The notes under the pieces were generated by a model. The model did no database searches. It had not been told where the DNA came from and saw only the letters and a program-made list of their open reading frames with translations. Positions 1-52,921 of a stretch of DNA of 64,000 nt are shown here, one piece after another. The position numbers were made by a program, and so were the translations under genes. Positions within the stretch are counted from its first letter, which is position 1. Each line of letters starts with the position of its first letter. Origin of the DNA: a virus (taxonomy: Duplodnaviria > Heunggongvirae > Uroviricota > Caudoviricetes); IMG/VR virus record IMGVR_UViG_3300009709_000002, positions 296,228 through 360,227 of that record; one strand, 5' to 3'.

Positions 1-256
1 TCTAAATTGACCATATCAACATTCCACTGATCAGACGTAAATGGACATTTAAATTCTACCGGGGTGCCGCCATGGCCAATTCTTGTAGATGCTACACGAA
101 TGTGACTATCATTCACTCCGTTTGTGATAACACCATCTTTAAATTCAACAGGTGTTTTGTAAGCTACACCAAGACTATGAACGTTATTTTCTTCAACAAA
201 TTTAGCCCATTCTTCTTGTGTGACGTTGGCTTCTTTCAGGTATTGTTTGAATCTCA
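1..256 (-). CDS. Family-A paralog, truncated by window edge (N-term MRFKQYLKEANVTQEEWAKF...)
   Basis: Minus-frame translation from ATG at 254-256 overlaps upstream stop (ATGA); N-terminus resembles other Family-A members. Confidence 0.6.
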
Positions 257-835
257 TAGCTTAGCCCATTCCTCAAATCCAGCGTCGATCAATTCATTTT
301 GGCATTCAAGCGTGTCTCTGTCTTTCAAATGCTTTTGCACAATTTTAAGAGCTTCACGCATTTCTTTTGTTGGTATTGAGATGCCTCGAACTTCTTTCAA
401 TGCTGGCCATTTAAGCAGCCCAAGCAGCCCACATTGGAATGCATTAGGCTCTAGGTGATTGAAAGAAACAAATTCAAGAGCATCGGTGCTTATGTCATTT
501 CTCACACGAAGATTTTTGACAGTGCATCCAGAGGTCACCATCAGGTTTTTACAAGGCGGCACAAAGTTAATGTCAAAATTTCCACTGTGAAAGTGAACAT
601 ACTCAAATTCACGATACTGCCATGCATCAGGAGGGATGTCAAAACCATGAGAGCAGTCGATATTAAGCTCATCAACCCAGGACTTCAATTTGATCTTACC
701 ATCTACAATGTCATCAAGAGCTGATTCACGATAGCGCTTATTATTGAACTTGTCAAGAAATTCAACTTTTCGAAGTTCTTCCCACCACTTGCTATCTTCT
801 GGCCTACGACCGCTAGCAATTTCAGCTATCTTCAT
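254..835 (-). CDS. Family-A paralog (LRR-like; C-term CQNELIDAGFEEWAKL)
   Basis: ORF track; shared motifs CGLLxLLK, LKGIEKL, C-terminal CQxELIDAGFEEWAKL; start overlaps neighbour stop. Confidence 0.8.
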   Translation of the reverse strand: MKIAEIASGRRPEDSKWWEELRKVEFLDKFNNKRYRESALDDIVDGKIKLKSWVDELNIDCSHGFDIPPDAWQYREFEYVHFHSGNFDINFVPPCKNLMVTSGCTVKNLRVRNDISTDALEFVSFNHLEPNAFQCGLLGLLKWPALKEVRGISIPTKEMREALKIVQKHLKDRDTLECQNELIDAGFEEWAKL

Positions 836-1416
836 AACTTTGCGAATTCCTCAAAACCTTCATCTAGCAGCTCACTTTGGCATGCCACAATATCTCTATC
901 ACCACGAAGCGCATCATTTAAAATATGCTGCAATTTCATAGACAGTTTTTCATCTAATCCAAAGCTGCCAGGATGAATTGCTATCATTTCTAAAATTGGC
1001 AGCTTAAATAGTTGAAGCATTGGAATTGGTTCAGTTGTGTTAGTCTGTTCAAATGCGATATATTTGAGCTTTGTCAAGTGACCACCGCCTTTTAGAGACT
1101 TCACTATAGATCTGCTAAAGTGCAAGGTCACTACATTAGGCAGATTTTTGAGGTCATCTACTTCAGCCCAATTGAAAATCACAGATGCAACATCCCATTG
1201 ATTTGGGTCAAATGGAAGCTCTAACTTTTTAGGCTTGTTGCCGATAGTTGAAAATGGTGCTATCTTCAATGATGATACAGCGCTTGCAGGCTTGATTTTT
1301 ATCTTGCCATCAAATTCAACGTCGCCCTTAGTAGCTCGAACGCTATAGGCGGCTCTAAATTCCTCCCAATCTTTTTGCGTTCCCTGACTTTCAGCTAAAT
1401 ATTCTCTAAATTTCAT
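832..1416 (-). CDS. Family-A paralog
   Basis: C-term CQSELLDEGFEEFAKL; ATGA overlap with neighbours. Confidence 0.8.
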   Translation of the reverse strand: MKFREYLAESQGTQKDWEEFRAAYSVRATKGDVEFDGKIKIKPASAVSSLKIAPFSTIGNKPKKLELPFDPNQWDVASVIFNWAEVDDLKNLPNVVTLHFSRSIVKSLKGGGHLTKLKYIAFEQTNTTEPIPMLQLFKLPILEMIAIHPGSFGLDEKLSMKLQHILNDALRGDRDIVACQSELLDEGFEEFAKL

Positions 1417-2024
1417 AACTTTGCGAATTCCTCAAAGCCTTCGTCTATAAGTCTAGATTGTGCTTCAACCATGTCTGATTTTTCTTTAAGCAGCTCATTC
1501 AAAAGCGTGTTAAGCTTTGACCCCCAAGCTTGTTCAACTGAAACATTGCGCAAATCACATTTGAGTAATCGAAGTAGACCTGGCTTCTTGATGTGCTCGC
1601 TTGGTCCGCTAATTCTGAACGTAATCGAATCTAGCATATTCAACTTCTCAATTCCCTTCAGTGACTCAATTTGGCAGGTGTGAAAATCTAGATGATTAAC
1701 ATTTGGCACCGTTGAAAAATCATCAAATGACATTAGTTCCATCTCAACACATCCACCAGCTGGTAAGTTCCAGCTGTCACTTGGAAAATCTACATTCCAT
1801 GGTGAAAAATCAGTATCGCCATGTTTTGGTCCTATACAGATGCCATTCCAATTTTTAGTAAGGCAAATTTTACCAGACTTGAATAGCACACCGCTTTTCT
1901 CATTGAATTCTTGCTTACTGTTGCCACCATTATTAGAGTAGTACGTTACTGTAGAATGTGTGTCTTTGAACTTTTTGAACTGTTCAGCAGTAATGCTTTC
2001 AATCAAGAATTGTTTGAATTTCAT
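1413..2024 (-). CDS. Family-A paralog
   Basis: C-term AQSRLIDEGFEEFAKL; N-term MKFKQFL. Confidence 0.8.
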   Translation of the reverse strand: MKFKQFLIESITAEQFKKFKDTHSTVTYYSNNGGNSKQEFNEKSGVLFKSGKICLTKNWNGICIGPKHGDTDFSPWNVDFPSDSWNLPAGGCVEMELMSFDDFSTVPNVNHLDFHTCQIESLKGIEKLNMLDSITFRISGPSEHIKKPGLLRLLKCDLRNVSVEQAWGSKLNTLLNELLKEKSDMVEAQSRLIDEGFEEFAKL

Positions 2025-2599
2025 TGCTTGGCAAATTCCTCTAGGCCAGCATCAATCAGCGCATTCTGACATTCAATGACATCACGGTTACCATCACGAT
2101 AGCGCATTACGATGTGCAGAGCTTTTTCGAGCTTTTCATCATCAAGCTTATGCGCCCACAGTTCTTTGCCGTGATACTTCAGAAGTTGAAGCACGCCACA
2201 ATCAAACTTCACGGCACCGATGAACTCTAGAAGCTGGATGGAATTTACTTCATTGATGCCTTTGAGCGACTTGACACGTGCACCTTCAAAGTTCAAACGT
2301 TGAACTTTTGGAAAGTGGTCAAATCCGTCTAAGATTACGTCGGGGCGTAGAGTGAGCGTGAACTCACCTAGTGGTTTGGTAGAGTGCAGAGGCCAGTAGA
2401 AATTCTTTGGGCTCTTTGCTTCTAGCTTGAGTGATGCGATCGTGTCTAGCAGCTCGCCATCTTTATCGGCCATCAGGCTCGATTTATCTACATCAACGTC
2501 AGTGTAGTCGTGCTTCATACCAGCAGTCACCGTGAAATCGGAAAGCCACTTCTTGATGTCTTTAGTAATTCCGCCGTCAAACAGTTCATTCAGTCTCAT
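2021..2599 (-). CDS. Family-A paralog
   Basis: C-term CQNALIDAGLEEFAKQ. Confidence 0.8.
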   Translation of the reverse strand: MRLNELFDGGITKDIKKWLSDFTVTAGMKHDYTDVDVDKSSLMADKDGELLDTIASLKLEAKSPKNFYWPLHSTKPLGEFTLTLRPDVILDGFDHFPKVQRLNFEGARVKSLKGINEVNSIQLLEFIGAVKFDCGVLQLLKYHGKELWAHKLDDEKLEKALHIVMRYRDGNRDVIECQNALIDAGLEEFAKQ

Positions 2600-2642
2600 G
2601 GAATACTCCCAGATGATTATGGGAGTATTTATGAGTTAGATT

Positions 2643-3218
2643 TTACAGCTTTGCGTATTCCTCATATCCTTCATCGATCAGCTTAGATTGAAAATCGACA
2701 ACATCTTGCTTGTCTTCCATGGCATTTCGTATGAGCTGTTCTAGCTCATGAAGGCTTGCATTTGTAAAGCGTACCTGCTTAAGCTTCTCACACTTCAACA
2801 GCCTGAGAACTCCGCATCGAAAATCACTACGCGCCATGCTAAATCGTATGTCTTCGAGATCTAGCTTTTCAATGCCTTTCAGTGACGTGACCACAGTGTT
2901 TCGGGTCAAGTGAATTTCCTTGGCATTGATCATCGACTCGAAGGTGCTAACCGTGAGAATGCGAGCAGATGTTCCACCGTTGCCTAGCTCAAGGTTATCT
3001 ATCACGTATGGAATGTGAAACGGCCAGTCAAACGCCTCACTGCTTCTTGGCATAATCCCAAGTTCGTGGTATTCTTTAGATGAAAGAAGACCGTTGATAG
3101 CCTCGACGCTTGATGCTCCGCCGGTTTTCTGATTGAAAGCACTTACGTGATATTTTTCTGCGTACTCTTCTTCAGCAGAAGTTACGATCTCATTTAAGAG
3201 GAAGTCTTTGAATTTCAT
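2643..3218 (-). CDS. Family-A paralog
   Basis: C-term FQSKLIDEGYEEYAKL. Confidence 0.8.
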   Translation of the reverse strand: MKFKDFLLNEIVTSAEEEYAEKYHVSAFNQKTGGASSVEAINGLLSSKEYHELGIMPRSSEAFDWPFHIPYVIDNLELGNGGTSARILTVSTFESMINAKEIHLTRNTVVTSLKGIEKLDLEDIRFSMARSDFRCGVLRLLKCEKLKQVRFTNASLHELEQLIRNAMEDKQDVVDFQSKLIDEGYEEYAKL

Positions 3219-3811
3219 AGCGTAGCGTACTCGTCGAGGTCGGCTTCAATCAGTTCATTCTGGCAATCCAAGGCGTTTGATTCACCAAGGTGGCTTCGTA
3301 CAATTGTCAGAACTTTGTGCAGCTTTGGGTTATCCAACTTGATGATAGGTGCCATCTTAAGGTGGTCTAATGATTGACACTTCAGCAGCCGCAAAACGCC
3401 GCACTTAATGTCAGACGACTTAGCAAAAACGAGTGCATTTAACGTTGAGAGCTTCTCAATTCCCTTGAATGACGTAATAGTGGTGTGAAGAAATCGAATT
3501 TCAATAGCTGTTGGCACTTTCTCAAAACCATCAATGATGTTAGAATTTGCATAGTACGCTGCATTGTGGTCAAAGTTGAAAGTCCTTAATCCCTTACCCC
3601 ACCAGCTAGCATCCATTGGCGGATCGAATGTTTGATTTGTGCGATCACTACCAAGGGTAATTTCTTTGTTGTGAAAGTCAAAAGCACCGATTGTATTGAG
3701 AAATTGAAAATCTTGAGACCTTACACTAGTTCCGCCAGATATTTTGTACTTCTTCATCCAATCTTCAAGCGCATTCTTGTTGACATCTTCTAAAAGATCA
3801 CTCAGCTTCAT
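3215..3811 (-). CDS. Family-A paralog
   Basis: C-term CQNELIEADLDEYATL. Confidence 0.8.
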   Translation of the reverse strand: MKLSDLLEDVNKNALEDWMKKYKISGGTSVRSQDFQFLNTIGAFDFHNKEITLGSDRTNQTFDPPMDASWWGKGLRTFNFDHNAAYYANSNIIDGFEKVPTAIEIRFLHTTITSFKGIEKLSTLNALVFAKSSDIKCGVLRLLKCQSLDHLKMAPIIKLDNPKLHKVLTIVRSHLGESNALDCQNELIEADLDEYATL

Positions 3812-4419
3812 AGCTTAGCCCATTCATCAAATCCAGCATCAATGAGAGCTGATTGGCACTCGATAATGTCTGGTTCAGGTTTGCTTTGTTCTTTTACTAC
3901 GATGCTAAGTGCATCTTGTAGTCTGTCATGATTGCCGCTATCAAATTCAATTTCACCGCGGAACTTAAGAAGGCTAAGCAATCCACATTCTACCTTCAGA
4001 TCATACCCGCCACCGTCCATTAGCTCAAGAATTTTAATCTTATCACGCTTCTCAATTCCCTTGAACGTCTTGATGACGACGCCACCTAGATTGAGCTTTG
4101 GCACATTTGGAATTACTGACCAATCATCAAGAATGAAGCCAGGCTTCGTAATGTCAAGCACGAAGAAATGCTTGAAATTTTGCTTTGCAAACGGCCAGAA
4201 GAATTTGTGCTGAACTGAGATGCTTTCAAGATACAAGATCTTGATGTCTGATCGCAGCGTGCCATCTTCGGCCATCAGCTGTTCTACTCTTTGTGCACTA
4301 ACGGGTGAAATGGTCGTAGCACCAAGCCGTCTAAACTTGACGACATAATCACGCATGAATTTTTCAATTCTAGCTTCCATCTCATCACGGTGGATGATGT
4401 GAATTTCATTTAGCTTCAT
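3808..4419 (-). CDS. Family-A paralog
   Basis: C-term CQSALIDAGFDEWAKL. Confidence 0.8.
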   Translation of the reverse strand: MKLNEIHIIHRDEMEARIEKFMRDYVVKFRRLGATTISPVSAQRVEQLMAEDGTLRSDIKILYLESISVQHKFFWPFAKQNFKHFFVLDITKPGFILDDWSVIPNVPKLNLGGVVIKTFKGIEKRDKIKILELMDGGGYDLKVECGLLSLLKFRGEIEFDSGNHDRLQDALSIVVKEQSKPEPDIIECQSALIDAGFDEWAKL

Positions 4420-5021
4420 AGCTTGGCATACTCCTCAAATCCAGCATCAATTAGGTCATCTTGACACTTGATGAGATCTTTATGTTCAAGATGCTTCATT
4501 ACAATTTTCAGAGCTTTTACCAAATTTTTATCTTGCCCAGAAGATTGTTCATTACCGATTTGGAGTGTCTTAAGGTTTGGTATCTTTAAAAGTCTAAGCA
4601 ATCCACTATCTGTGTGCTTGATATGTACGATCATGCTGGTCATCGAAGTGAGTTTTTCTATTCCTGCAAATGAATCTACAACTCCACCTATCGCATACCT
4701 AGAAGCGCCATTCGGAAAGTCATTGAAATTCTTGAACACAAATTGATCTAACGGTCCCCAGATATCACCAGCCGCAAAAGTTCGAATATCATGCAAGTAG
4801 CCAAATGGCCAATAGAATGTTTGAAATCGCAGCTTTGGCATTATTTGAAAAGTTGCAATATCAGGCATGAACTTCCCATCTGGATCAACGAGCGATGTTC
4901 TGCGAGAAATCGACTTCTTAAGATTGCCACCTAGAGTGCATGATACTTTGAATTTGCCAAAGTAGTCTTTTGACAAAGCTACAGCTTGAGCATCTTCTGT
5001 TAGTAGTTCTTTGAGCTTCAT
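4416..5021 (-). CDS. Family-A paralog
   Basis: C-term CQDDLIDAGFEEYAKL. Confidence 0.8.
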   Translation of the reverse strand: MKLKELLTEDAQAVALSKDYFGKFKVSCTLGGNLKKSISRRTSLVDPDGKFMPDIATFQIMPKLRFQTFYWPFGYLHDIRTFAAGDIWGPLDQFVFKNFNDFPNGASRYAIGGVVDSFAGIEKLTSMTSMIVHIKHTDSGLLRLLKIPNLKTLQIGNEQSSGQDKNLVKALKIVMKHLEHKDLIKCQDDLIDAGFEEYAKL

Positions 5022-5719
5022 AGCTTTGCGTACTCCTCAAATCCAGCATCTATTAACGCAGATTGAAGATCGACGATACTGTGACCAGCTTTGAAGCTGT
5101 CATCGATGACCTGGCACAACTTTTCATACTTTACCGATTCGTCATCGTCAAATGAATCTATACTGACGATGTCTAATTTTGGACATTTAGCGAATCTAAG
5201 AACACCACAACTGAGACTCACTCTATGAGATGCGCCGAGCGAAAATCCGCTTAGCGATTTTAACTTCTCGATTCCAGCTAAAGATTTAACTATCAAGTTG
5301 TTTGCATACTGGATTGTGATCATATTCGCGTCTGGGAATGTTTCTAACCCATCAAGCACGTGATCAGTTTTTAAAGTGATGCCTAGCAGTTTTTGTGGTG
5401 CTGGAAACATAGATGGAAATTCTATTTTCTTTCCAGGTAAGAACGTCACGGCCACATTTTCAGGATGCACGTACATCTGTTTCAGATTGCCGTGTTCATC
5501 TATCAGTGAGTGAATCGTCGGTGTCAGCTCGCCAGTTTCGTTATTCAGCCATCCACTTTCATGGTTTGGCTTAGACAAGAACGTCTCTTTATCTTCCGCG
5601 TGATAGTAGATATTATCGCTTGTTCCAGTGATCTTGAAGATGTAACAGTTGTCTACGATCCAGCTTTCAAGCTCATCAGCTTTACTTGTAGATTCTGTTA
5701 GTAGTTCTTTGAGCTTCAT
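5018..5719 (-). CDS. Family-A paralog
   Basis: C-term LQSALIDAGFEEYAKL. Confidence 0.8.
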   Translation of the reverse strand: MKLKELLTESTSKADELESWIVDNCYIFKITGTSDNIYYHAEDKETFLSKPNHESGWLNNETGELTPTIHSLIDEHGNLKQMYVHPENVAVTFLPGKKIEFPSMFPAPQKLLGITLKTDHVLDGLETFPDANMITIQYANNLIVKSLAGIEKLKSLSGFSLGASHRVSLSCGVLRFAKCPKLDIVSIDSFDDDESVKYEKLCQVIDDSFKAGHSIVDLQSALIDAGFEEYAKL

Positions 5720-6372
5720 AGGTGTGCAAAAGGCTCCATCCAGTCATACGAATCAAGCATTTCATTTTGGCAGGCGAGTACGTCTCTATCACCCTTGAGA
5801 TGCTTGTTGATGATCTTTGCTACTTCGTTATTCCACGGTAGAGTGACTTGCTTCAAGCGTGGACATTTCAGCAGACGAAGAACACCCATGCCTTTACGAG
5901 CCTTACCGTCTGGGCCAGGTCCTGCGTAGTACATGTAGAGCGTCTCAAGCTTATTGAGCTTTTCAATGCCTTTAAATGAATCGAACATGTAGTGATCTAG
6001 GCGAAGATCTTTGACGTTTGGTAGCTTCCCAAAATCATCGATCATATAGCCGCTTAGCACGACGTGCTCAACCTTTGATGAATAGCCTTTGACAGGGCAG
6101 TCATCAAATTTGGCTTTACTTCTGGTGCTCATGCTTAGGGAGTCATAACCCTTCTTTACTAGCAGCACACCGTCATAAACGTAGTAGCCATTTGGGTCAC
6201 TATGAACTTTACCGGTGTGGTTATCTTTCGGGTTCATAAGGCTTTGAGACACTGTTTTCGGTTTAGGCACCTGATGACCGTGCAAGAACGCAACCGTTCT
6301 ATTTTCTTTAAGCCATGCTTCAACAGCTTTATCTTCACTTGCTTCTTCTTTGAGTAACTCAATAACTTTCAT
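5716..6372 (-). CDS. Family-A paralog (start moved to internal Met MKVIELL; ATGA overlap at 6369-6372)
   Basis: ORF 5716..6420 overlaps upstream gene; the internal ATG restores the coupled-start pattern seen across the array. Confidence 0.7.
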   Translation of the reverse strand: MKVIELLKEEASEDKAVEAWLKENRTVAFLHGHQVPKPKTVSQSLMNPKDNHTGKVHSDPNGYYVYDGVLLVKKGYDSLSMSTRSKAKFDDCPVKGYSSKVEHVVLSGYMIDDFGKLPNVKDLRLDHYMFDSFKGIEKLNKLETLYMYYAGPGPDGKARKGMGVLRLLKCPRLKQVTLPWNNEVAKIINKHLKGDRDVLACQNEMLDSYDWMEPFAHL

Positions 6373-6962
6373 AGCTTCGCCCATTCTTCTAAGCCAGCAT
6401 CGATCAAATCTGTTTGACAATCGATGATGTCATGTTTTTCACAAAATTCATTCAGCGCACTAGTTAACTTCTGCCCTACGTCCATGTCATCGACAATGTC
6501 TGTTAGATCGATGTCTTCAATCTTCGACTTTACAAATGGAAGAACTCCAATCGGCTCTTGGTTTACTTTGAAGTCTTTGTTAATGACACAGAATGATGTA
6601 GATGATAAGTTCTCAGCGCCCTTAAAGCTCTTGAACGTGCACCCAAAGAATATTAGAGCGTGCTTCACGTTTGGGACTTGCTTCAAGCTTTCAAATTGCA
6701 AGTTGCTAAAGTCGATGCGATCAAATCCTTCTATCTCGCATGGAAAGCCATCAAAATCTTTCTTGTTATCTACGTTGTATGAGCCGACATCCATTCGCAC
6801 AATATTCGATGCGGCGGGTTTTAGCTTTCCACCTTCATAGATAATGTTTGCTCTGTCTGGAGATGAAGTAGCAGAGCTTATCCCAGTCACATTATACTTC
6901 TCAAGGAAGTCCGAAACGCTTTTCGGCATCTCGTCTTCCTTGAGAATTTCTTTTAGCTTCAT
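6369..6962 (-). CDS. Family-A paralog
   Basis: C-term CQTDLIDAGLEEWAKL. Confidence 0.8.
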   Translation of the reverse strand: MKLKEILKEDEMPKSVSDFLEKYNVTGISSATSSPDRANIIYEGGKLKPAASNIVRMDVGSYNVDNKKDFDGFPCEIEGFDRIDFSNLQFESLKQVPNVKHALIFFGCTFKSFKGAENLSSTSFCVINKDFKVNQEPIGVLPFVKSKIEDIDLTDIVDDMDVGQKLTSALNEFCEKHDIIDCQTDLIDAGLEEWAKL

Positions 6963-6999
6963 TTAGAAACTCCAATGTTTAGATGGAGTATTTATGAGC

Positions 7000-7653
7000 T
7001 TACAACTTCGCGTATTCGTCAAAACCTTTTTCAATCAGCTCATCCTGGCACTCAAGCATATTGTTTTCTTTGCCAATGTACTTCTTCACGATCTTGAAAG
7101 CTTCAATCCCCTTCATGTGCGCGTCGGTACCACGGCTACCGCCAGGTCCAAACTGCATCTCGAATTCACCTAGCTTGAGCAATGATAGCAGACCACAATC
7201 AAACGTGGTGCTATTTGAGAAATAGACGTACTCAGGTTTTATCGCAACTAGCTGCTTCAGAGATTTTACCGTGTACGGATGAAAGTATATGTCTTCATAG
7301 TGCAGCTTAGGAAGAACACTTTCATCCGTGAAGACTCCGCCATTCACGTTAATCGCGATAGGATCTTTCAGTTGAGGAAAATAGAATCGAAATTCATCAG
7401 CAGAGATAGGGCAGGCTGACAACGTAGATGAACCATTCTTTACTACGAAGTCAATACCAAAATATTGATAGTTAAGCTTGATCGGCTTACCAATCTGGAA
7501 TGATTTTTCAAGAACTCGCTTTGGATTAGGCAGATTTTTACCATTGCCAATGCGAATTCGAACGTGATCAAACCACCAGGCAATTTGTTCTTCAGAAAGA
7601 GCCATGGTGGAATCATCTTCCTCAGCTTCAAACAGAATTTCTTGTAACTTCAT
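7000..7653 (-). CDS. Family-A paralog
   Basis: C-term CQDELIEKGFDEYAKL. Confidence 0.8.
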   Translation of the reverse strand: MKLQEILFEAEEDDSTMALSEEQIAWWFDHVRIRIGNGKNLPNPKRVLEKSFQIGKPIKLNYQYFGIDFVVKNGSSTLSACPISADEFRFYFPQLKDPIAINVNGGVFTDESVLPKLHYEDIYFHPYTVKSLKQLVAIKPEYVYFSNSTTFDCGLLSLLKLGEFEMQFGPGGSRGTDAHMKGIEAFKIVKKYIGKENNMLECQDELIEKGFDEYAKL

Positions 7654-7693
7654 TAACTAACTCCAATTAAGATGGAGTATTTATGAGCTTACA

Positions 7694-8416
7694 TTACAAC
7701 TTCGCGAAATCCTCAAATCCAGCGTCGATCAGCTCGGTCTGCAGGTCAACCTTACTACGTTCTAGCACAGGCAGCTTCAAGTGCTTGTTGATGATATCAG
7801 CCATCTCATTATGCCGACCAATTCCATCTTCTTTCGAAAAGCTACTGAAAAACATCACCTCTTCCAGAATTGGTGACTTCAACAATTGAAGCACGCCCGG
7901 CTTATGCTCATTCTGATTGCAGTTATACAATCTCAACCTACGAACGTACGTCTTCTCGATCCCTTCAAAGGAGCGCACGTTGCAGTCCACCAGCGTTATG
8001 CCTTGGATGCGCTGGTTGAGCTGATCTAGAGTGGAGAACTTGTACTGGCACAGCGTCATCCACGGTGCTCCCCAGTTAATGTTTCTTGGAACTTCAAATT
8101 CCGTTCCTAAGTTCTTGGCGGTGATCTTGATCTCACTGCTCATGTGGTCGAACTGACGATTCGCCTGCATTCGCCACCAATCGACGAACTCTTTGGCCGG
8201 ATCGCTTTGGTGATTCCGAACTTCTACAGTATTCTTCATGGCGAACTCTCGCCATTGACGTTGGAACTCTAGCTCTTTTTCTTTCTCGTCCAGGAGCATC
8301 ATATCGTTCTTTCCTATGCTACCGCGAAGCGGCGGAAATTTTTCTAAGCACCTAAGAATGATTCTATCACCTTTCATGGTAGAAGTAAAGGATGCTTCAA
8401 CCTTTTCTCGCTTCAA
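7694..8416 (-). CDS. Family-A paralog
   Basis: C-term LQTELIDAGFEDFAKL. Confidence 0.8.
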   Translation of the reverse strand: MKREKVEASFTSTMKGDRIILRCLEKFPPLRGSIGKNDMMLLDEKEKELEFQRQWREFAMKNTVEVRNHQSDPAKEFVDWWRMQANRQFDHMSSEIKITAKNLGTEFEVPRNINWGAPWMTLCQYKFSTLDQLNQRIQGITLVDCNVRSFEGIEKTYVRRLRLYNCNQNEHKPGVLQLLKSPILEEVMFFSSFSKEDGIGRHNEMADIINKHLKLPVLERSKVDLQTELIDAGFEDFAKL

Positions 8417-8979
8417 AGTTCAGCATACTCATCGAGACCAGCATCGAGCATGGCAGATTGGCACGCGACGATGTCACGATCTTTCAAGTGCTTCCTAACG
8501 ATGCCTAACGCAAGCTCCAACCGCGTAGCATGAACGTTGGCGAAGATGATAGCTTCTAGGCGTGGCAGCTTCAGCAATCTCAGCAGGCCGCAATTGAAAT
8601 GGGCTCCATAGTTCAACCCAACAATATACAGCAGCTCTAGATTCTTTAAGCGATCAACGCCTTTTAGCGTTTCCACCTGCAGCCCATGAAGGCTGAGACT
8701 CTTCACCAAGGTAGGAAAGCCTTCCCAATCATTTAAGACAAGAAGCTTCGCCGGTCTGGCCATGATGTCGAGATGGCGTAGGTAAGCCTCACCGAAGGGC
8801 CAGTAGAAGGGATCTTCATTGTTCAGCTTAGGAGACACGATCAAATTATTGATGTGCATGCGAACGTTGTTCTTACTATCAAAGATCGCATCATACCGCT
8901 CGGGTGTTACCGTCGCTTTACCAGGCTCTTGGAGCTCATATTTGTCCAGCCAGTCTAATCCTTCGAGAGCTGTGGTCAT
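8413..8979 (-). CDS. Family-A paralog (GC-richer)
   Basis: C-term CQSAMLDAGLDEYAEL. Confidence 0.8.
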   Translation of the reverse strand: MTTALEGLDWLDKYELQEPGKATVTPERYDAIFDSKNNVRMHINNLIVSPKLNNEDPFYWPFGEAYLRHLDIMARPAKLLVLNDWEGFPTLVKSLSLHGLQVETLKGVDRLKNLELLYIVGLNYGAHFNCGLLRLLKLPRLEAIIFANVHATRLELALGIVRKHLKDRDIVACQSAMLDAGLDEYAEL

Positions 8980-9590
8980 AGCTTGGCATACTCCTCATAA
9001 CCCTTCTCGATGAGCTCCGACTGGCAGGCGATGATATCCCGCTCAGCACCATCTTCAGTCAGGTACGTTTCCACGATCCACAAGACGTCTTTTAGCCGAC
9101 GCTCTACGTTGACGGATCCACAGTTGATCCGGGTCAATTTCGGACACTTCAAGAGCCGAAGCAGCCCGCACGTTATGATTGTTCCATGCTGGTGCCCTTC
9201 AACGTAGAGCGAATGCATGTTTTCTAGCCTCTCCACGTTCTTGAACGTTTCGACGTGTAGCCCAGACAGATGGACGTAACGTACCGACGTTGGCAGCTCA
9301 TCCCAGCTCTTCAGCGCCAAACGCTGGTTAGTATTCTGCATGATGTTGAGAGACACTATATCCGCTTCACCGAACGGCCAGTAGAATCCACGAGGATTTC
9401 CGTAGAACTTGTTCGCCGTAATGTTCAGTTCACAGAAACCGTCGCGCAGCGTCTTCGTCGCATTGTCGAAGAGCTGATCAGCTCTAACCACAGTAATACC
9501 GGTGTCGATGTTGGTCGCCGCAACACCAAAATCAGACATGTACCGAACGATCGACATGTCAGTATCATTGTAGACTCCCGCCGCGCTCAT
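8976..9590 (-). CDS. Family-A paralog
   Basis: C-term CQSELIEKGYEEYAKL. Confidence 0.8.
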   Translation of the reverse strand: MSAAGVYNDTDMSIVRYMSDFGVAATNIDTGITVVRADQLFDNATKTLRDGFCELNITANKFYGNPRGFYWPFGEADIVSLNIMQNTNQRLALKSWDELPTSVRYVHLSGLHVETFKNVERLENMHSLYVEGHQHGTIITCGLLRLLKCPKLTRINCGSVNVERRLKDVLWIVETYLTEDGAERDIIACQSELIEKGYEEYAKL

Positions 9591-9599
9591 AGTAGCTCC

Positions 9600-10229
9600 T
9601 CACAGTTTCGCATATTCTTCTAAGCCTGAGTCGATCAGCTCCGACTGGCAGGCGACGATGTCCTTCAGCTCTAAATGCTTCTTCACGATAGATAAAGCAT
9701 CATGCTGTCTCTTATGCTCACCATCATAAGAAACTCCGATCATCCTCAGCTTAGGTAGCTTCAGCAACCGCAGCACTCCAAGCTCTTCCAACTGGAAAGG
9801 CCGACGCACCGCTCCGTTCAGAATCAGCTCCTCCAAGTTCTGCAACCGTTCAATTCCTTTGAGAGACGACACGATAGTTCCATGAAAGACCAGGCGGTGC
9901 AGGCTCTCAGGAAAATCACTCCACCCCTCCACACGAAACTGCCTAGGAATCATGCCGGTCTTAATGATAAACGAGATCAAGCCAACCGACATCACCTCCA
10001 GCTTCGCGCCGCCGAACGGCCACTCGAACCTTATAGGTTCATCTCCGTCTAGCTTCTGACAAATGTTCACCTTCACGACGTCATCCAACAGCCGAGCGCT
10101 CTTCACGTCAAAGATGTTCAGCAATGACTTCATCAGCTCGCCATTCTTCAGCACCGCGTTGACTTCATAGTCTCTTAGGTAGTCGGCCAGTACGAAAGGA
10201 TGGTTCATAAGCTCTCTTGTCACTTCCAT
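9600..10229 (-). CDS. Family-A paralog (first gene of the array)
   Basis: C-term CQSELIDSGLEEYAKL; followed upstream by a 700-bp noncoding region. Confidence 0.8.
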   Translation of the reverse strand: MEVTRELMNHPFVLADYLRDYEVNAVLKNGELMKSLLNIFDVKSARLLDDVVKVNICQKLDGDEPIRFEWPFGGAKLEVMSVGLISFIIKTGMIPRQFRVEGWSDFPESLHRLVFHGTIVSSLKGIERLQNLEELILNGAVRRPFQLEELGVLRLLKLPKLRMIGVSYDGEHKRQHDALSIVKKHLELKDIVACQSELIDSGLEEYAKL

Positions 10230-14872: not shown

Positions 14873-15130
14873 TCAGACCGACTCGTTCAGCAGGTGAAAC
14901 CAGTGCTTATCTAGCGCGTCTTTGTACCGCGTACCGCACGCCTTCTCGATGCTCGTCTGGTTGAAGTCGGTTGCGAACCGGTTCATGATCGCCGTCTGCA
15001 GCTCATTCAACCACACGCCGAACGTGCTAAACGACTTGAAGTCGCCTAGGTTCGTCTCGTCCAGCCGCTTGCCCATCACCACCATATCACCGTTCAACAT
15101 AGCTGCTCCTACGCGCCGTTTCAAACTCAC
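14873..15130 (-). CDS. hypothetical protein
   Basis: ORF track. Confidence 0.45.
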   Translation of the reverse strand: MSLKRRVGAAMLNGDMVVMGKRLDETNLGDFKSFSTFGVWLNELQTAIMNRFATDFNQTSIEKACGTRYKDALDKHWFHLLNESV

Positions 15131-15278
15131 TGGATAGCCAAGCTATCACCGTCACCAATATAGCGGCTGGAGCTTCCCACCCAAAGAACTTCGTGAGGAT
15201 GGTGCCTAATATTATAGCCACCGTCCAAGGCAGCACTACCACCAGAAATACTCCAACTATCACGTCCAAAGTCTTCAT
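15087..15278 (-). CDS. small membrane protein
   Basis: Hydrophobic helices. Confidence 0.45.
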   Translation of the reverse strand: MKTLDVIVGVFLVVVLPWTVAIILGTILTKFFGWEAPAAILVTVIAWLSSEFETARRSSYVER

Positions 15279-15391
15279 GTGCTCTCCAAGATGATCCTTT
15301 CTATTCTATCACAGCTATAGGAGAATGTAAACAGGAAAATATACTTAAGCTCTATAGCTAGATACAATAGGCTTATAACCCGAGGATCACC

Positions 15392-15577
15392 ATGTTTTTC
15401 TTTCGCACTCGCTATAGGATCGTCCTAGACACTTACTCCGGCTTTGAGGCACAGTACCGGCCCTGGTGGTCACCATTCTACCTGCAGATCGGTGGAACTA
15501 ACACCAGCTCATCCTTAGCCGAAGCTCGTAAGATAGTTGACAATCATAAGCACCACGTGGTCTGGCAAGGCTACTAA
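15392..15577 (+). CDS. hypothetical small protein (plus-strand mini-operon)
   Basis: ORF preceded by a CTATAGG-type motif. Confidence 0.4.
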   Translation: MFFFRTRYRIVLDTYSGFEAQYRPWWSPFYLQIGGTNTSSSLAEARKIVDNHKHHVVWQGY

Positions 15578-15642
15578 CTCTTGTTTACTCTCTCCTATAG
15601 CTATGATAGAATGAATCCATCGTAGCTATAGGGACAAAGTGA

Positions 15643-17761: not shown

Positions 17762-18325
17762 TCAGGAGGCCTTCTGCTTAGTAGCCTCTATCGTGGAGGT
17801 GTGAGCGGGTATAGAAACGTCAAGAATGTTGGTTGTAGAGTCATCTTGCTCTATAGGTCTAGTCTTCCTATAGCTAGATGGGAGTACTTCTTGCGCGGGG
17901 AGTGAGTCATAGAGCTCGTTCAGCTCGGCCTTTAGCTTCTTCGCTCTATTGTCATGTCGCTCGGCGTACATCAGCGCCGTTTGAGCGGTGAGCTTACGGC
18001 CGTCTAGCGGAGCGATGAGCAGCCCGTCTACAGGTGGGGAGAAGTAAACTTGGAGCCAGTAGTCACGGTGGCTCAGGGAGATCTTCAGGCGGGATTGTAG
18101 CTCGGCGAGCTTCTCTTGTCTCATAAGGTCGTTTAGCCTCTCGGTGAATCGGATCGCCTGCTGCTCATAGGTCTCGATGTAGTGGGTGTATCTCTCGATC
18201 GCATGCGGATCGGTAGAGTCTTTAAGCCGCTTCGTAAAGATCCTAACACAAGCTTGAGCGCGGGAGATCACTCTCTCGAGTTTCTCTTTTTTGGTGGGTG
18301 GATCGATGAAAGGTCTGGGGCTCAT
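17762..18325 (-). CDS. Family-B protein (C-term LPSSYRKTRPIEQ)
   Basis: Conserved C-terminal motif; variable N-terminal body. Confidence 0.7.
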   Translation of the reverse strand: MSPRPFIDPPTKKEKLERVISRAQACVRIFTKRLKDSTDPHAIERYTHYIETYEQQAIRFTERLNDLMRQEKLAELQSRLKISLSHRDYWLQVYFSPPVDGLLIAPLDGRKLTAQTALMYAERHDNRAKKLKAELNELYDSLPAQEVLPSSYRKTRPIEQDDSTTNILDVSIPAHTSTIEATKQKAS

Positions 18326-18608
18326 CTTGCTCTATAGGTCTGGTCTTGTTGAAGCTGGTAGGGAGTACTTCAGCTGGGTCTTGGTCGGCTTGAAATTTGG
18401 CGAGCAGCCAGCGCAGCTGACGTTGAAAGTACTCGAGATCTTGCCTGTACTGAGCGATAGTTCTATTATCTGACTCGATAACGTGAGGTCGATCTTCACT
18501 ATCACGCAGCTCCGTCATTCTCCGAATGAGCATTTCGGTAGTTCGAATGCGGCGCTCGAGGCGCTCTTGCTCTGACTTCTGTGTGTGCAGGTAGCTCATC
18601 TGAGGCAT
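18243..18608 (-). CDS. Family-B protein (EVLPTSFNKTRPIEQ)
   Basis: Motif; tail overlaps next gene. Confidence 0.7.
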   Translation of the reverse strand: MPQMSYLHTQKSEQERLERRIRTTEMLIRRMTELRDSEDRPHVIESDNRTIAQYRQDLEYFQRQLRWLLAKFQADQDPAEVLPTSFNKTRPIEQDEPQTFHRSTHQKRETRESDLPRSSLC

Positions 18609-18855
18609 CTTCTATAGGTCTAGCTCGGAAGCTGGTGGGTAGTACTTCAATCTCTTCCTTCTGCAGGTACTCTTTGACCTTGACTAGACGGTCGCGCACC
18701 GCGGTGTAGCCGTCGACTCCACCCTGCCAATAGTCTCTAGTTACTTGGTGAACAGCTCTATCACGGGCTCGAGCGCAGTAATCGATGCTGAAGTCCTGGT
18801 GGCCGATGCACTCGTCAATGTTCTCTAAGCTTAGGGTGATTGTTCGGTTTGACAT
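18502..18855 (-). CDS. Family-B protein (EVLPTSFRARPIED)
   Basis: Motif. Confidence 0.7.
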   Translation of the reverse strand: MSNRTITLSLENIDECIGHQDFSIDYCARARDRAVHQVTRDYWQGGVDGYTAVRDRLVKVKEYLQKEEIEVLPTSFRARPIEDASDELPAHTEVRARAPRAPHSNYRNAHSENDGAA

Positions 18856-19174
18856 GAATGATCTTCTGCTGGTAAAGAGCTTCCTGCTCTTCGGTAGGTC
18901 TGGGGCGGCCGAAGCTGGTCGGGAAGAGCTCTTTGAAGGGCTTGTTGACCTCGAGGTAGCGCGCTTTTTCCTTTCGCCAGTAGGTAATCTTAGCCTGATA
19001 TATCTCTACATACTTGAGCACGTTCTCGACGGTGTGCTTGCGGCCAGCGGTGTCGTAAAGGAGACCGTCTTCCGGCTTAGTGTCGGAGAAGTAGACGTCA
19101 TACCAGTAGCGTAAGCTAACGGATTCATACTCGATTATAGAGTCATAGCGTTCGATTACTTTCGGATCGATCAT
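18815..19174 (-). CDS. Family-B protein (ELFPTSFGRPRPTEEQ)
   Basis: Motif. Confidence 0.7.
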   Translation of the reverse strand: MIDPKVIERYDSIIEYESVSLRYWYDVYFSDTKPEDGLLYDTAGRKHTVENVLKYVEIYQAKITYWRKEKARYLEVNKPFKELFPTSFGRPRPTEEQEALYQQKIIHVKPNNHPKLREH

Positions 19175-19487
19175 GCGGAGCTCGCGGTAAGGTTAGTTGG
19201 ATAGTAGCTTCTTCCTGCTCGATCGGTCGTGAGCGCTTAAAGCTGGTCGGGAGTACTTCAGCCACGTGCTGTCGTTCAGCTTCAAGCAGGAGCTCTAAGG
19301 TGTCTTTGCGCTCGGCGATAACTCCCTCGAGGTAGGATTCCATCGACTTGAAGTTCATGACCAGCCAACCTACCGACTCAAGCTCCTTCTCTTCATAACT
19401 CAGCCGAGTCTCGATAGTGCCGTTTAGCATCTTCTCGTACTCTTTGATCGACGTTTCGAGGTAAGCTATTTCTTCCGGGTAGTTCAT
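19143..19487 (-). CDS. Family-B protein (EVLPTSFKRSRPIEQ)
   Basis: Motif. Confidence 0.7.
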   Translation of the reverse strand: MNYPEEIAYLETSIKEYEKMLNGTIETRLSYEEKELESVGWLVMNFKSMESYLEGVIAERKDTLELLLEAERQHVAEVLPTSFKRSRPIEQEEATIQLTLPRAPHDRSESNRTL

Positions 19488-19830
19488 GGGCTTGGTCCTC
19501 TAAGAGACTGGTAGCTTCTAGCGGTCTGGTCTTCTGGAAGCTTGTTGGTAGCACTTCAATCGGTTCTGCTTTGAGAGCTTCTATCTTTCTCTGGTGATTT
19601 TCATTCAGCTCGTCGATGTAGCGGCTGTAGTACTCAATACACGAGATCGCATGGTTGAGGTAACCGTCATCAAAGTCATTCATCTCTCGCTGCAGCTCCA
19701 GCTGAAGGTCTCTTGTTTTTATCCAAGCTCTACGGCACCGGTTCAGCTCATCATATCGTTTGCTGTAATCCAGGTGCGCCCGCTCGTTGATGGTTTCCCA
19801 CATCGCTTGCATCAGATTGTTCATGGTCAT
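19393..19830 (-). CDS. Family-B protein (EVLPTSFQKTRPLE)
   Basis: Motif. Confidence 0.7.
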   Translation of the reverse strand: MTMNNLMQAMWETINERAHLDYSKRYDELNRCRRAWIKTRDLQLELQREMNDFDDGYLNHAISCIEYYSRYIDELNENHQRKIEALKAEPIEVLPTSFQKTRPLEATSLLEDQAHELPGRNSLPRNVDQRVREDAKRHYRDSAEL

Positions 19831-20278
19831 AGGCGTTAAGCTGTCTGCTTTTATTTAGCGAGTTGGGTAACACTTCAACGGTCGCTTCACCTCGTTTTTC
19901 TGCGCAGTTTTTGATGTAGATCTCTGCATCATGCAGAACAGCGAGGTAATGCTTGATCTTCGCCTGGCACAGGTCGATGTGCGCCTGGTCATTAGACATC
20001 TCAGCTTCACCAAGGTGAGCATACCAGCTGGCCAACCAATACGTAGCGGCATTGACCTTCGCTTTATACATACGTTGTTCACGTCGAGCGACTTGGCCGT
20101 GTTCACACTCGACTAGAGCATCAAGAAAGGCTTTCCGTTCCGGTGACTCGCCGAACTCCAGCGCTTCGGCAGTCGGCTTCCGTCCACGTATACTCTGAAG
20201 AATCTCTTCCGATCTGTTCAGCATGATTCGCCTTGTGAGTAAATTTGTTGGGTAGCAGCTCGACATGCCCTCGTTCAC
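19751..20278 (-). CDS. Family-B protein (EVLPNSLNKSRQLN)
   Basis: Motif, divergent. Confidence 0.65.
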   Translation of the reverse strand: MNEGMSSCYPTNLLTRRIMLNRSEEILQSIRGRKPTAEALEFGESPERKAFLDALVECEHGQVARREQRMYKAKVNAATYWLASWYAHLGEAEMSNDQAHIDLCQAKIKHYLAVLHDAEIYIKNCAEKRGEATVEVLPNSLNKSRQLNAYDHEQSDASDVGNHQRAGAPGLQQTI

Positions 20279-20498
20279 ACATCTCTATCATCGAAACGAA
20301 CTTAGCCATGCGCTGCTCGTACTCTATTACAGACGCTAAGATGTTACTCTGTTGCTCAAACGTCAGTTTGACGTTGTGATCCCAGTGATCATCAAGCTGG
20401 CAGAGTAGCCTTTCTCTCGCTCGGCATAAAGATTCGTGGCATCGACGCAAGAAGGTTAGCGTGTCTTCCTGGCTGCTCTGTTCTATCGTCAGCATCAA
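20121..20498 (-). CDS. Family-B protein (ELLPNKFTHKANHAEQ)
   Basis: Motif, divergent. Confidence 0.6.
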   Translation of the reverse strand: MMLTIEQSSQEDTLTFLRRCHESLCRARERLLCQLDDHWDHNVKLTFEQQSNILASVIEYEQRMAKFVSMIEMCERGHVELLPNKFTHKANHAEQIGRDSSEYTWTEADCRSAGVRRVTGTESLS

Positions 20499-20850
20499 TC
20501 ACCCGCTTAGGTTTGTTGGGTAACACTTCTACTACTTGATTCTCGATCGCTGCAAGCTCTTCTATTCTCGCTTTTAGCCAATCGACATTATGCTGCATCA
20601 TCTTCTTAACGATCTTTATTCGTCTAACCAACACAGCTTCCTTAGCAGCATTGTACTCAGGATTATCGCCGGTGCGAGCGAGTCGAATTTGCTCATCGAT
20701 CATTTTATCAAGCTTGCGCCAATCTTGAAACAAAGCGTCGCTCGTCACCACGTACACTTCATAGTGCTCAGCTTTAACTCGTCCGCATGCAGTGATCACG
20801 ATCGACTGATCGTATGGGTCGTAGTTGGTGTACGTGCGTAGTGTTTTCAT
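20392..20850 (-). CDS. Family-B protein (EVLPNKPKRVIDAD)
   Basis: Motif. Confidence 0.65.
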   Translation of the reverse strand: MKTLRTYTNYDPYDQSIVITACGRVKAEHYEVYVVTSDALFQDWRKLDKMIDEQIRLARTGDNPEYNAAKEAVLVRRIKIVKKMMQHNVDWLKARIEELAAIENQVVEVLPNKPKRVIDADDRTEQPGRHANLLASMPRIFMPSERKATLPA

Positions 20851-21190
20851 CTAATTGCCTCTGCTTCTTGAATGAGGTAGGAAGCACTTCAACTGGTGGG
20901 GTAGTGAATGCAGCGATCTGCTCTTTCAATACATCAAGAGCTCTTTCCATCGCAGCATCATGCTCGGTGATTTTCTCTATCGCCTCAGTGTGAAGCTCTT
21001 CATTGTACTTGTCACGCTCTTCATACCACAATCGAACCTGCTCTTCTTCAATTCTTTCCCACTTACGACGTGCCGACCAGAGCTCACCGTGACTTCTTAT
21101 GTACACCATGTATGACGGAACATCCACCTGGCCCCAGACCGTGTTGCACCATGCGACCGGCGTGTTGGTATGAAGGTTCGGTTGATTCAT
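20774..21190 (-). CDS. Family-B protein (EVLPTSFKKQRQLDE)
   Basis: Motif. Confidence 0.7.
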   Translation of the reverse strand: MNQPNLHTNTPVAWCNTVWGQVDVPSYMVYIRSHGELWSARRKWERIEEEQVRLWYEERDKYNEELHTEAIEKITEHDAAMERALDVLKEQIAAFTTPPVEVLPTSFKKQRQLDENTTHVHQLRPIRSVDRDHCMRTS

Positions 21191-21470
21191 GGCTATCCTC
21201 GTGTGGTCTTAGTTTAAATGAAGTAGGAAGCACTTCCGCTACATCTTCGGCATCTTGAAGTTTACTCATGAGCTCGCGCTCTACTTCTCTATTCTTCTCT
21301 ATGAGCTCACTGTAATACTCGATGCCGATCTCGTGCGTCTCGTAAGACAGTTCTTGCTCCAACGCGTTGATGATAGCTCTCGTTATCGTCAATTGATTCT
21401 TCAATTCCGGCGCTGTCATCTTTGTTCTTCTTAAAGCTCGTTGGAAGCACTTCAGGGTGTTGATGTTCAT
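21084..21470 (-). CDS. Family-B protein (EVLPTSFKLRPHED)
   Basis: Motif. Confidence 0.7.
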   Translation of the reverse strand: MNINTLKCFQRALRRTKMTAPELKNQLTITRAIINALEQELSYETHEIGIEYYSELIEKNREVERELMSKLQDAEDVAEVLPTSFKLRPHEDSHESTEPSYQHAGRMVQHGLGPGGCSVIHGVHKKSR

Positions 21471-21774
21471 GGAGTTCTATGACCTTCTTAGCAGCTTGAA
21501 TCGACATCGCTTGGTCTGTCAAAAACTCTGGCTTATAGTGCACAAACAGCCGAATGTAGTCCTTGGCATCTTCGATCGACACCATCAGGTGAGCGTCATC
21601 ATCTCGACCATAAAGTGACAGCATCGTGTACATCAGGTCTCTGAAGTGAACGAACTCGTCCGTCGTCTCATCAGCTGGATTGTTCATGAAAATCCTTGTT
21701 TGCTGCTGACAAGTTGCCAAGATAAACTTCTCGTGCGGTGTTAGTGAGTGAGCACTGCATGAAGATGTCTTCAT
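21307..21774 (-). CDS. Family-B protein (EVLPTSFKKNKDD)
   Basis: Motif. Confidence 0.7.
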   Translation of the reverse strand: MKTSSCSAHSLTPHEKFILATCQQQTRIFMNNPADETTDEFVHFRDLMYTMLSLYGRDDDAHLMVSIEDAKDYIRLFVHYKPEFLTDQAMSIQAAKKVIELHEHQHPEVLPTSFKKNKDDSAGIEESIDDNESYHQRVGARTVLRDARDRHRVLQ

Positions 21775-22111
21775 TCGTTCTTTTCAACTCTCTTTGTTTC
21801 TTCACGAAAGAGCTTGGTAGCATCTCCGTGAATTCTTCATCTCGCTTAGCAAGCTCTATTCTACGTTTCGCTACTTGAAACGTAGTTGAGTTAACGCTTG
21901 CCTCTAACGCTTCGTGCCGATTCTTGAAGAACAAATCGATGTAGAGCTCCGCCTGCTCAGGAGTTATCTCCATGAAGTGCTCATACGTCATGTAACCTTG
22001 CATCATCACGTGGAACAGCTGTTGATAGCGAGGATCTTTTTCTCCAAACGTTTTCGTCTGGAGAATGTCTTTGTCACTCGATAGATGCAGCTGCGGCCAT
22101 GATTGTGTCAT
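21671..22111 (-). CDS. Family-B protein (EMLPSSFVKKQRELK)
   Basis: Motif. Confidence 0.7.
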   Translation of the reverse strand: MTQSWPQLHLSSDKDILQTKTFGEKDPRYQQLFHVMMQGYMTYEHFMEITPEQAELYIDLFFKNRHEALEASVNSTTFQVAKRRIELAKRDEEFTEMLPSSFVKKQRELKRTNEDIFMQCSLTNTAREVYLGNLSAANKDFHEQSS

Positions 22112-22571
22112 GATAAGTCACGATTTCCTGATAAAGATCACCAATATTGCTGTGGATCTTCAAGTTAGGGTCCACCAGGTGAGCTTGAACTTGCACGTCT
22201 AACAGTCGCTCATAACCTGGGTCACATCCAACAAAAATCTTCTTTCCCGAGAGCTGCGATTGAGCGAGCCAATAACCAAACTCAAACAATGTGATCGGAC
22301 AAAGCGTCTCTTTCGGAAACCAGAACGAAATGCAGGTAGCTGCTTTCAGGTACTGGTGCTCCCAGATGATCTGCTGAATCGAGATTTCATGCCGCGAAGT
22401 ATCAAAGTCATTCCGACGTGGATTGATGACCAGGAAGTTCGTCGCCTTCATCAGCAGTTCAGCAAATATCTTTTGCCAGTCGGGGCAGTTTGAGATGCCA
22501 CCGGCTAAAAAGATCGAGAGTAGGTTATGTTCTGGCGTGCGCTCATTAGGCGCTTCGAGATAGTTGTTCAT
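22074..22571 (-). CDS. nucleoside 2-deoxyribosyltransferase-like protein
   Basis: SIFLAGGISNCPDWQ and FLVINP segments resemble the Rossmann-like deoxyribosyltransferase fold; embedded in the Family-B array. Confidence 0.45.
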   Translation of the reverse strand: MNNYLEAPNERTPEHNLLSIFLAGGISNCPDWQKIFAELLMKATNFLVINPRRNDFDTSRHEISIQQIIWEHQYLKAATCISFWFPKETLCPITLFEFGYWLAQSQLSGKKIFVGCDPGYERLLDVQVQAHLVDPNLKIHSNIGDLYQEIVTYHDTIMAAAASIE

Positions 22572-28419: not shown

Positions 28420-28469
28420 AAATGCTCCGTAAATGAATATTCTATCACTTAACGGAGCATTTGTAAACT

Positions 28470-38822: not shown

Positions 38823-38834
38823 ATGATGTATTTA

Positions 38835-52889: not shown

Positions 52890-52921
52890 AACTTACTCCA
52901 TTTGATGGAGTATTTATTACT

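Follow-up and report, generated by a model that had tools for sequence, protein, structure and literature searches.

A late-type promoter box as the probable masking strand of Shine-Dalgarno hairpins in the accessory region of a large uncultivated phage

In the accessory region of a large uncultivated phage, one inverted repeat recurs upstream of four start codons. Why a ribosome-binding site should be built into a hairpin at several loci, and in which transcripts the hairpin would form, is the question addressed here. The DNA analysed, referred to as the window, is a stretch of 64,000 nucleotides (positions 296,228 to 360,227 of the IMG/VR record IMGVR_UViG_3300009709_000002) in which the open reading frames (ORFs) lie almost all on the minus strand. 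It contains a cluster of 30 tRNA genes, with more than one copy of several tRNA species, and the ARAGORN call for a tRNA-Asn at 55347–55420 (minus strand) has the unusual anticodon ATT. Among the encoded proteins are a CCA-adding enzyme, an SPFH protein and an ATP-grasp protein. The window sequence is also present in the Logan assemblies of run SRR5829574, where the contigs break at paralog arrays and hold accessory genes only. No DNA-level relative was found in the phage collection with megablast (window positions 1–8000), and tblastn with the DUF8224 protein (695 aa) and the CCA-adding enzyme gave distant matches only, which were taxonomically scattered. When 52 further ORFs of the window were compared with PHROG, the matches were HNH endonucleases, an RF-1 domain protein, a deoxyribonucleotidase and otherwise unnamed families only; gp55-, gp33- or gp45-like genes were absent from the scanned window ORFs, and the flanking Logan contigs add just ~2 kb. 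At the gathering threshold of Rfam 15 the matches in the window are all tRNAs.

Three of the four sites lie in a tandem array on the minus strand (254–10229) of 16 ORFs of ~190–240 aa, 14 of which align as one paralog family; the alignment left out the array ORFs 5716–6420 and 9600–10229. Three more members are found at 50160–52023 (minus strand), giving 17 aligned genes in all. Pairwise identity in the family is ~24%, with a maximum of 37%, and the proteins share an N-terminus (MKLxEL) and a C-terminus (...CQxxLIDAGFEEYAKL). Neighbouring genes of the array are mostly joined by an ATGA stop/start overlap, and the gene starts at 2599, 6962 and 7653 are the only junctions at which a spacer of ~40 nt replaces this overlap. 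The paralog has no tblastn match in the phage collection, and neither the family nor the 74-aa ORF downstream of the fourth site matches Pfam or PHROG. The AlphaFold model of the paralog behind the first site is confident (pLDDT 91.6); a comparison with the PDB gave no significant neighbour, only weak internalin/LRR-like matches (E ≥ 0.39). In related contigs, ATAAATA often stands immediately before members of the family. Overlapping ORFs of ~115–190 aa form a second tandem series (17762–23079, minus strand) that looks like another paralog array, with a conserved coding sequence (...GAAGTGCTTCCNACNNCNTTC..., approximately EVLPTSF) just 5′ of each next start. The ORFs 22991–23890 and 40688–41950 (minus strand) show short sub-threshold matches to the profiles of the T4 portal, the tail-sheath C-terminal domain and Gp18 domain I, and these T4-structural-like fragments may be gene remnants or chance matches.

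A preliminary description of the window, made from the sequence alone, had reported the same inverted repeat 5′ of four minus-strand starts, with the SD of the next gene in its 3′ arm, and had regarded it as a reused module. The repeat is present at all four positions, its 3′ arm does hold the GGAG Shine-Dalgarno (SD) of the next gene, and the module is reused. Its conserved element, ATAAATACTCC, lies 21–26 nt 5′ of the start codons at 2599, 6962, 7653 and 52889 (minus strand), referred to as S1 to S4. On the plus strand there are exact copies of the word GGAGTATTTATG at 2622, 6985 and 7674 and a one-mismatch copy at 52907; from shuffles, 0.14 matches of this type are expected. A further one-mismatch match at 15243 was judged to be due to chance, as 15130–15330 has no adjacent module or start codon. 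On the coding strand the order is the same at every site: an upstream stop codon (at S4, a tRNA-Phe), (CTC)ATAAATACTCC, a loop of 3–9 nt, GGAGU, a spacer of 6–7 nt and ATG. Only ATAAATACTCC is invariant across the four sites; the loops and 3′ flanks differ. The ACUCC of ATAAATACTCC pairs with the GGAGU of the SD, and at S1–S3 a CUCAU pairs with the start codon too.

All features of the four sites are on the minus strand. S1 (CTCATAAATACTCCCA-TAATCATC-TGGGAGTATTCC-ATG, 2635→2597) has its ATAAATA at 2626–2632, equivalent to positions −12 to −6 of a T4 late promoter, with a predicted +1 at 2620. Its hairpin (2595–2635) is composed of two helices, the outer formed by CUCAU (2635–2631) and AUGAG (2599–2595) and the inner by AAUACUCCCA (2629–2620) and UGGGAGUAUU (2611–2602), around a loop at 2619–2612. 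The SD (GGGAG), the spacer and the ATG occupy 2597–2609 and belong to the paralog gene 2021–2599, whose N-terminus MRLNEL fits the family start. At S2 (CTCATAAATACTCCA-TCTAAACAT-TGGAGTTTCTAA-ATG, 6998→6960) the box is at 6989–6995 and the predicted +1 at ~6983; the hairpin (6957–6999) pairs ACUCCA (6989–6984) with UGGAGU (6974–6969) across a loop at 6983–6975, the outer helix joins (G)CUCAU to the AUG region, and the ATG (6962–6960) opens the gene 6369–6962. S3 (CTCATAAATACTCCA-TCTTAAT-TGGAGTTAGTTA-ATG, 7688→7651) has its box at 7678–7684, a predicted +1 at ~7672 and a hairpin (7648–7688) with the inner helix ACUCCA (7678–7673)/UGGAGU (7665–7660), the loop 7672–7666 and the outer helix UCAU/AUGA; its ATG (7653–7651) opens the gene 7000–7653. 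S4 (AATAAATACTCCAT-CAA-ATGGAGTAAGTT-ATG, 52918→52887) lies within the tRNA cluster, its (A)ATAAATA (52911–52917) directly 3′ of the tRNA-Phe gene 52922–52997 and its predicted +1 at ~52905. Here the hairpin (52885–52919) has the inner helix UACUCCAU (52912–52905)/AUGGAGUA (52901–52894) with the loop CAA and the outer helix GUAAU/GUUAU(G), and the ATG (52889–52887) opens the 74-aa ORF 52665–52889.

The preliminary description overlooked the promoter-like nature of the conserved part. The minus strand of the window has 15 copies of ATAAATA and the plus strand has none; the shuffle expectation is 5.3 for both strands together and 15 was reached in none of 100 shuffles. All but one of the 15 copies fall outside ORFs and tRNAs, which together make up 73% of the window, and 13 are 5–57 nt 5′ of a gene or tRNA. 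A conserved −35 element was not found at the ATAAATA sites, and the preceding base is variable. ATAAATA matches seven of the eight positions of the T4 late box TATAAATA, the first base being the one missing, and ATAAATACTCC is identical to the T4 promoter P23. The P23 promoter of gene 23 reads TATAAATACTCC, and gp55 contacts the box at A−12, A−9 and A−8 (PMC7892883). ATAAATA or NATAAATA has been predicted as the late motif of the jumbo phages CBB/GAP32 and of T4-like cyanophages; these motifs have the same 7-nt core, with the first position variable or absent, and are reported upstream of structural genes, with an SD-masking hairpin not described. The conserved core is thus a probable T4-late-type promoter box that forms or abuts the 5′ arm of the hairpin, and from this likeness we infer promoter activity and late timing. 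A second promoter class, TTTAC(A/T)-17-TA(T/G/C)AAT, is found upstream of other genes of the window.

Some copies of the box stand in other settings (all minus strand). At 40618–40630, right after a clear intrinsic terminator, ATAAATA is only 5 nt 5′ of the ATG of the ORF 40247–40618; with T4 spacing the +1 would be the A of this ATG, so the mRNA would be leaderless. Boxes also lie directly 5′ of the tRNAs for Cys (36319–36325), Arg-tct (38829–38835), Pro-cgg (54229–54235) and Asp (55327–55333), and transcription from the box at 38829 would start 1 nt ahead of the 5′ end of the mature tRNA.

The predicted folds are of uneven strength: S1 is strong, S3 and S4 are moderate and S2 is weak. The inner stems have 10 bp (S1), 6 bp (S2), 6 bp (S3) and 8 bp (S4), and over −50 to +12 the minimum free energies (MFE) are −18.8, −12.3, −15.4 and −11.3 kcal/mol for S1 to S4, respectively. 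Against dinucleotide shuffles the z-scores are −5.45 (S1), −2.2 (S3), −1.7 (S4) and −1.4 (S2), obtained with MFEs of −18.6 for S1, −8.5 for S2 (−45 to +6), −10.0 for S3 and −10.6 for S4, such that S1 alone is individually exceptional. At all four sites, on the other hand, the SD is paired to its upstream partner with an ensemble probability of ~1.0, a value that ranks them within the top 5 of 60 SD-bearing genes, and the pairing survives in the longer context of −110 to +40. In the short context the start AUG is paired at 0.58–0.96 in the predicted folds; for pairing of the whole −15 to +3 region S2 ranks 40th of 90 genes. SD pairing of 0.6 or more is seen in ~30% of the other genes too. A crude split of all gene starts by full-minus-truncated ddG put 23% of controls at −8 or below and did not separate the modules from ordinary genes, and was replaced by SD-specific pairing probabilities and a permutation test.

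We consider it probable that the promoter-derived strand masks the SD on read-through RNA, and that RNA from the site's own promoter escapes the hairpin and is translated. The cassette would consist of an (N)ATAAATA box, an anti-SD CUCC at −5 to −2, a short loop, the SD and the start codon. In RNA reading through from upstream, which at S1–S3 would come from the coupled paralog array as a long polycistron and at S4 from the tRNA cluster, the promoter-derived sequence would pair with the SD and, with the extra CUCAU/AUGAG pairing at S1–S3, binding of the 30S subunit would be blocked. RNA from the site's own promoter would start ~6 nt past the box, would lack CUCC, would form no hairpin and would be translated. 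The +1 was placed by T4 numbering, with an A at −12 and the +1 as the sixth base after the box; on this geometry alone it coincides with the final base of the 5′ arm in S1 and S4 and lies just past the arm in S2 and S3, and it is a pyrimidine at S2–S4. Transcripts truncated at the predicted +1 have folds of 0 to −5.5 kcal/mol in which the SD is free, compared with −11 to −19 kcal/mol for the full form. As the box forms or abuts the 5′ arm, the hairpin is expected in read-through transcripts only, and is thus expected to be a transcript-specific (temporal) switch and not a constitutive block. The gene would be translated only while its own promoter class is active, regardless of upstream transcription. 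Read-through into S1–S4 is plausible, since sigma70-like promoters are predicted upstream and none of the S1–S3 hairpins is called terminator-like; the candidate promoters, all of them consensus matches only, are GTGACA-18-TATAAT at 10443–10414 upstream of the array and those at 53952–53924 and 58641–58613 upstream of S4 in the tRNA cluster.

Masking of an SD by sequence of its own promoter is documented for T4 e, soc, 49, I-TevI-III and segB and for Aeh1 mobE (PMC3014915, PMC2988022). In this class the late box TATAAATA or AATAAATA gives or abuts the 5′ strand and the 3′ strand is the SD and/or AUG, as here. Late transcripts of the class start inside the structure and escape the hairpin, the same geometry being predicted here, and the regulated genes belong to units whose promoters lie upstream. 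The T4 e leader TATAAATACCTTCTATAAATACTTAGGAGGTATTATG (arms AAUACCUUCUA/UAGGAGGUAUU) folds at −14.9 kcal/mol into the same two-helix shape as S1. I-TevI (arms AAUAAAUACUUC/GAGGUAUUUAU) has a fold like that of S4, and its box, like the S4 box, is AATAAATA. When 100–150 kb of T4 was scanned, I-TevI was recovered (AATAAATACTTCT...GAGGTATTTATG, ddG −11.6). Scores were 0 to −4 for the structural late genes 19, 20, 22, 24 and 51, and P23 had no SD hairpin. S1–S4 are therefore additional members of the known T4 class, in a novel phage, and the mechanism is not new. They differ from the T4 members in several respects: the phage is uncultivated and large, the box lacks the conserved first T, the start site is a predicted one, the controlled genes are tandem paralogs and a 74-aa ORF instead of lysozyme and homing endonucleases, and three of the cassettes interrupt an otherwise ATGA-coupled array.

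The last of these differences bears on another way in which the hairpins might act. Ribosomes terminating at the upstream stop could melt the hairpin, making translation of the downstream paralog dependent on that of the upstream gene and standing in for the ATGA overlap of the other junctions. Such a coupling gate would suit an array in which most other junctions are overlaps, and the upstream stops at S1–S3 are 1–8 nt before CUCAU, within reach of a terminating ribosome. S4, however, follows a tRNA and not an ORF, and the T4 e gene is likewise stop-adjacent, with the stop of nudE 2 nt before the 5′ arm, yet is reported to be repressed ~100-fold in early RNA (PMC3014915). A coupling gate would also not account for a 5′ arm that consists of a strand-biased promoter box, and we regard it as unlikely.

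A further possibility is that the cassettes serve mainly as crossover points for gene shuffling or insertion, the hairpin being secondary. Although the flanking genes have only 17–23% identity, the cassette is identical over 14–21 nt from one junction to another; this core is shared by junctions of diverged genes and by the unrelated tRNA/ORF junction, and the region is of the hyperplastic accessory type. There is also precedent in the PeSLs, cassettes of stop, promoter, stem-loop and SD which have been shown to recombine (PMC2839356; PMC4122927). The likeness to PeSLs (Arbiol et al. 2010; Comeau et al. 2014) lies in the short repeated intergenic cassettes with the order stop, promoter, stem-loop, SD and start codon, in their location in accessory regions and in the conserved copies between unrelated or diverged genes. 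PeSLs, however, have sigma70-like early promoters, G/C-rich terminator stem-loops and an unmasked SD, whereas S1–S4 have a late-type box without a −35 and an AU-rich, non-terminator stem that contains the SD. Against a role in recombination as the principal one, the inner arms co-vary so as to keep their pairing (ACUCCCA/UGGGAGU, ACUCCA/UGGAGU and ACUCCAU/AUGGAGU in the window, and ACUCCUA/UAGGAGU in the metagenomic viral contig L133), which recombination homology alone does not need. As the chief explanation a recombinogenic cassette, the late-promoter analogue of a PeSL, appears rather unlikely; it is compatible with the transcript-specific switch and the two are not exclusive.

The pairing could also be a by-product without function, ATAAATACTCC being a strong late promoter whose CUCC would pair with any GGAG SD downstream. 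That P23 in T4 makes no SD hairpin, and that the inner stems of S2 and S3 have only 6 bp, would agree with a CUCC/GGAG complementarity that is partly incidental. Yet CTCC is carried by just 4 of the 15 ATAAATA boxes of the window, and all four are hairpin sites; the helices reach past CUCC/GGAG by means of differing, compensating bases; and arms of unrelated sequence mask the SD at 52023, 44223 and 28419. Chance pairing is further opposed by two comparisons. In the permutation test, 12 of 42 modules, which are not all independent (S2 resembles S3, and three copies on contig L132 are near-duplicates), had a ddG of −8 or below with their cognate 5′ and 3′ halves; the mean for permuted halves was 3.7 and 12 was reached in none of 20000 permutations. 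In unrelated viral contigs, 47 of 99 distinct ATAAATACTCC...GGAGT...ATG modules have an ATT after GGAGT, compared with 8 of 123 control GGAGT-ATG starts that have no box, and an ATT at this position extends the helix into the AAT of the promoter. Co-variation, the permutation test, the enrichment of ATT and the recurrence with other arms argue, together with the identity of the cassette between diverged genes, that the pairing of the SD is under selection, and a functionless by-product is improbable.

An intrinsic terminator or attenuator between genes, the other half of the suggestion in the preliminary description that the repeat is a translational-control or terminator-RBS module, is highly improbable: the hairpins are intergenic and the plus-strand reading of S4 was flagged as terminator-like, but the coding strand has no U-tract, the stems are AU-rich with 3–4 G-C pairs, S1–S3 were not flagged and the 3′ arm serves as the next gene's SD. 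Translational control remains the plausible half, the SD being masked. Equally far from likely is a DNA operator bound by a dimeric regulator that occludes the promoter, for although the inverted repeat overlaps the promoter and I-TevI is autorepressed through an operator that overlaps its late promoter (PMC2988022), the half-sites are spaced by 3, 7, 8 or 9 nt and the arms are of unequal length, which suits an RNA hairpin and not a dimer site, and the genes that follow, members of the paralog family in one case and the 74-aa ORF in the other, are unrelated.

The transcript-specific switch would not be confined to the shared arms of S1–S4. On the minus strand at 52021–52060 an ATAAATA hairpin with other arms (box 52050–52044; UGUCUC/GAGGAGAC) masks the SD of the paralog gene 51397–52023, the SD region being paired at 0.86 with a z-score of −3.7 in the long context. 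At 44221–44267 (minus strand) a CCUCC just 5′ of the box (44257–44251) pairs with AGGAG; the masked small ORF starts at ~44223, and the full fold of −15.5 compares with −4.2 for the late form. A hairpin at 28417–28470 (minus strand) is built instead on a sigma70-like promoter, TTTACA-17-TAGAAT, with the 5′ arm ACAAAUGCUCCGU in the −35/spacer region and the 3′ arm ACGGAGCAUUUGU covering the SD and GTG start of the ATP-grasp gene 27601–28419; with 14 bp at 28417–28464, an MFE of −25.9 kcal/mol and a z-score of −8.8 it is the strongest of the sigma70-like hairpins. A promoter-like sequence is built into the masking 5′ arm at six ATAAATA sites and at least five TTTAC-17-TATAAT sites.

The sigma70-like sequences TTTAC(A/T)-17-TAnAAT are placed ~70 nt 5′ of the starts 12846, 16926, 28419, 29909 and 48486 (minus strand). 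At all five the −35/spacer region is the 5′ arm and the 3′ arm covers or abuts the next SD, an arrangement that is PeSL-like; these hairpins are nearer to PeSLs than S1–S4 are, yet they mask the SD. It is conceivable, though doubtful, that masking by promoter sequence is an insulation rule of the whole genome, with portable cassettes (a late-type PeSL) that reset timing in arrays and tRNA clusters. If it were, each cassette would be translated from its own promoter only and would be silent on read-through RNA.

The design is also found in other phages. It is repeated in viral contigs that code for members of the window's paralog family, at L133:3213 (ATAAATACTCCTA...TAGGAGTAT), L132:1433, 2602 and 4335, L131:502 and L122:7732. 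The L133 module precedes a DUF559/Vsr-like protein, and the three L132 modules precede three paralogous SegE-like GIY-YIG proteins that fall below the Pfam cut-off. A metagenome scan identified CTCATAAATACTCC-ATAGA-GGAGTACACA-ATGAG, with both helices and −14.8 kcal/mol, on a 305-kb contig (L263/L264/L266), where the following gene is a staphylococcal-nuclease homologue (SNase PF00565, E 3.7e-15). Searched as an exact 14-mer across viral contigs, CTCATAAATACTCC gave single chance-level matches only. The nuclease genes behind these metagenomic-phage modules parallel the regulation of the T4 homing endonucleases. This recurrence in unrelated metagenomic phages, often before nucleases, suggests that the device of T4 lysozyme and I-TevI is used well beyond the T-even phages.

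For an otherwise opaque accessory region the analysis provides a concrete annotation, comprising a probable late-promoter motif, two promoter classes and a set of genes predicted to be silent on read-through RNA. Within the array the cassettes are predicted to split 16 translationally coupled paralogs into separately controlled blocks. That the cassettes are inserted into a coupled array, and that sigma70-like promoters follow the same logic in parallel, adds modest interest, and the geometry of ATAAATA plus anti-SD could serve annotation pipelines as a signature of transcript-specific translation.

Two minor features of the window may be added. On the plus strand at 52894–52912 the S4 hairpin followed by TTTATT fits a simple terminator pattern, with no converging plus-strand gene evident. 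The sequence CTATAG(C/G) recurs in non-coding stretches, at 15300–15640 and upstream of the starts 16622, 16926, 18325 and 18608.
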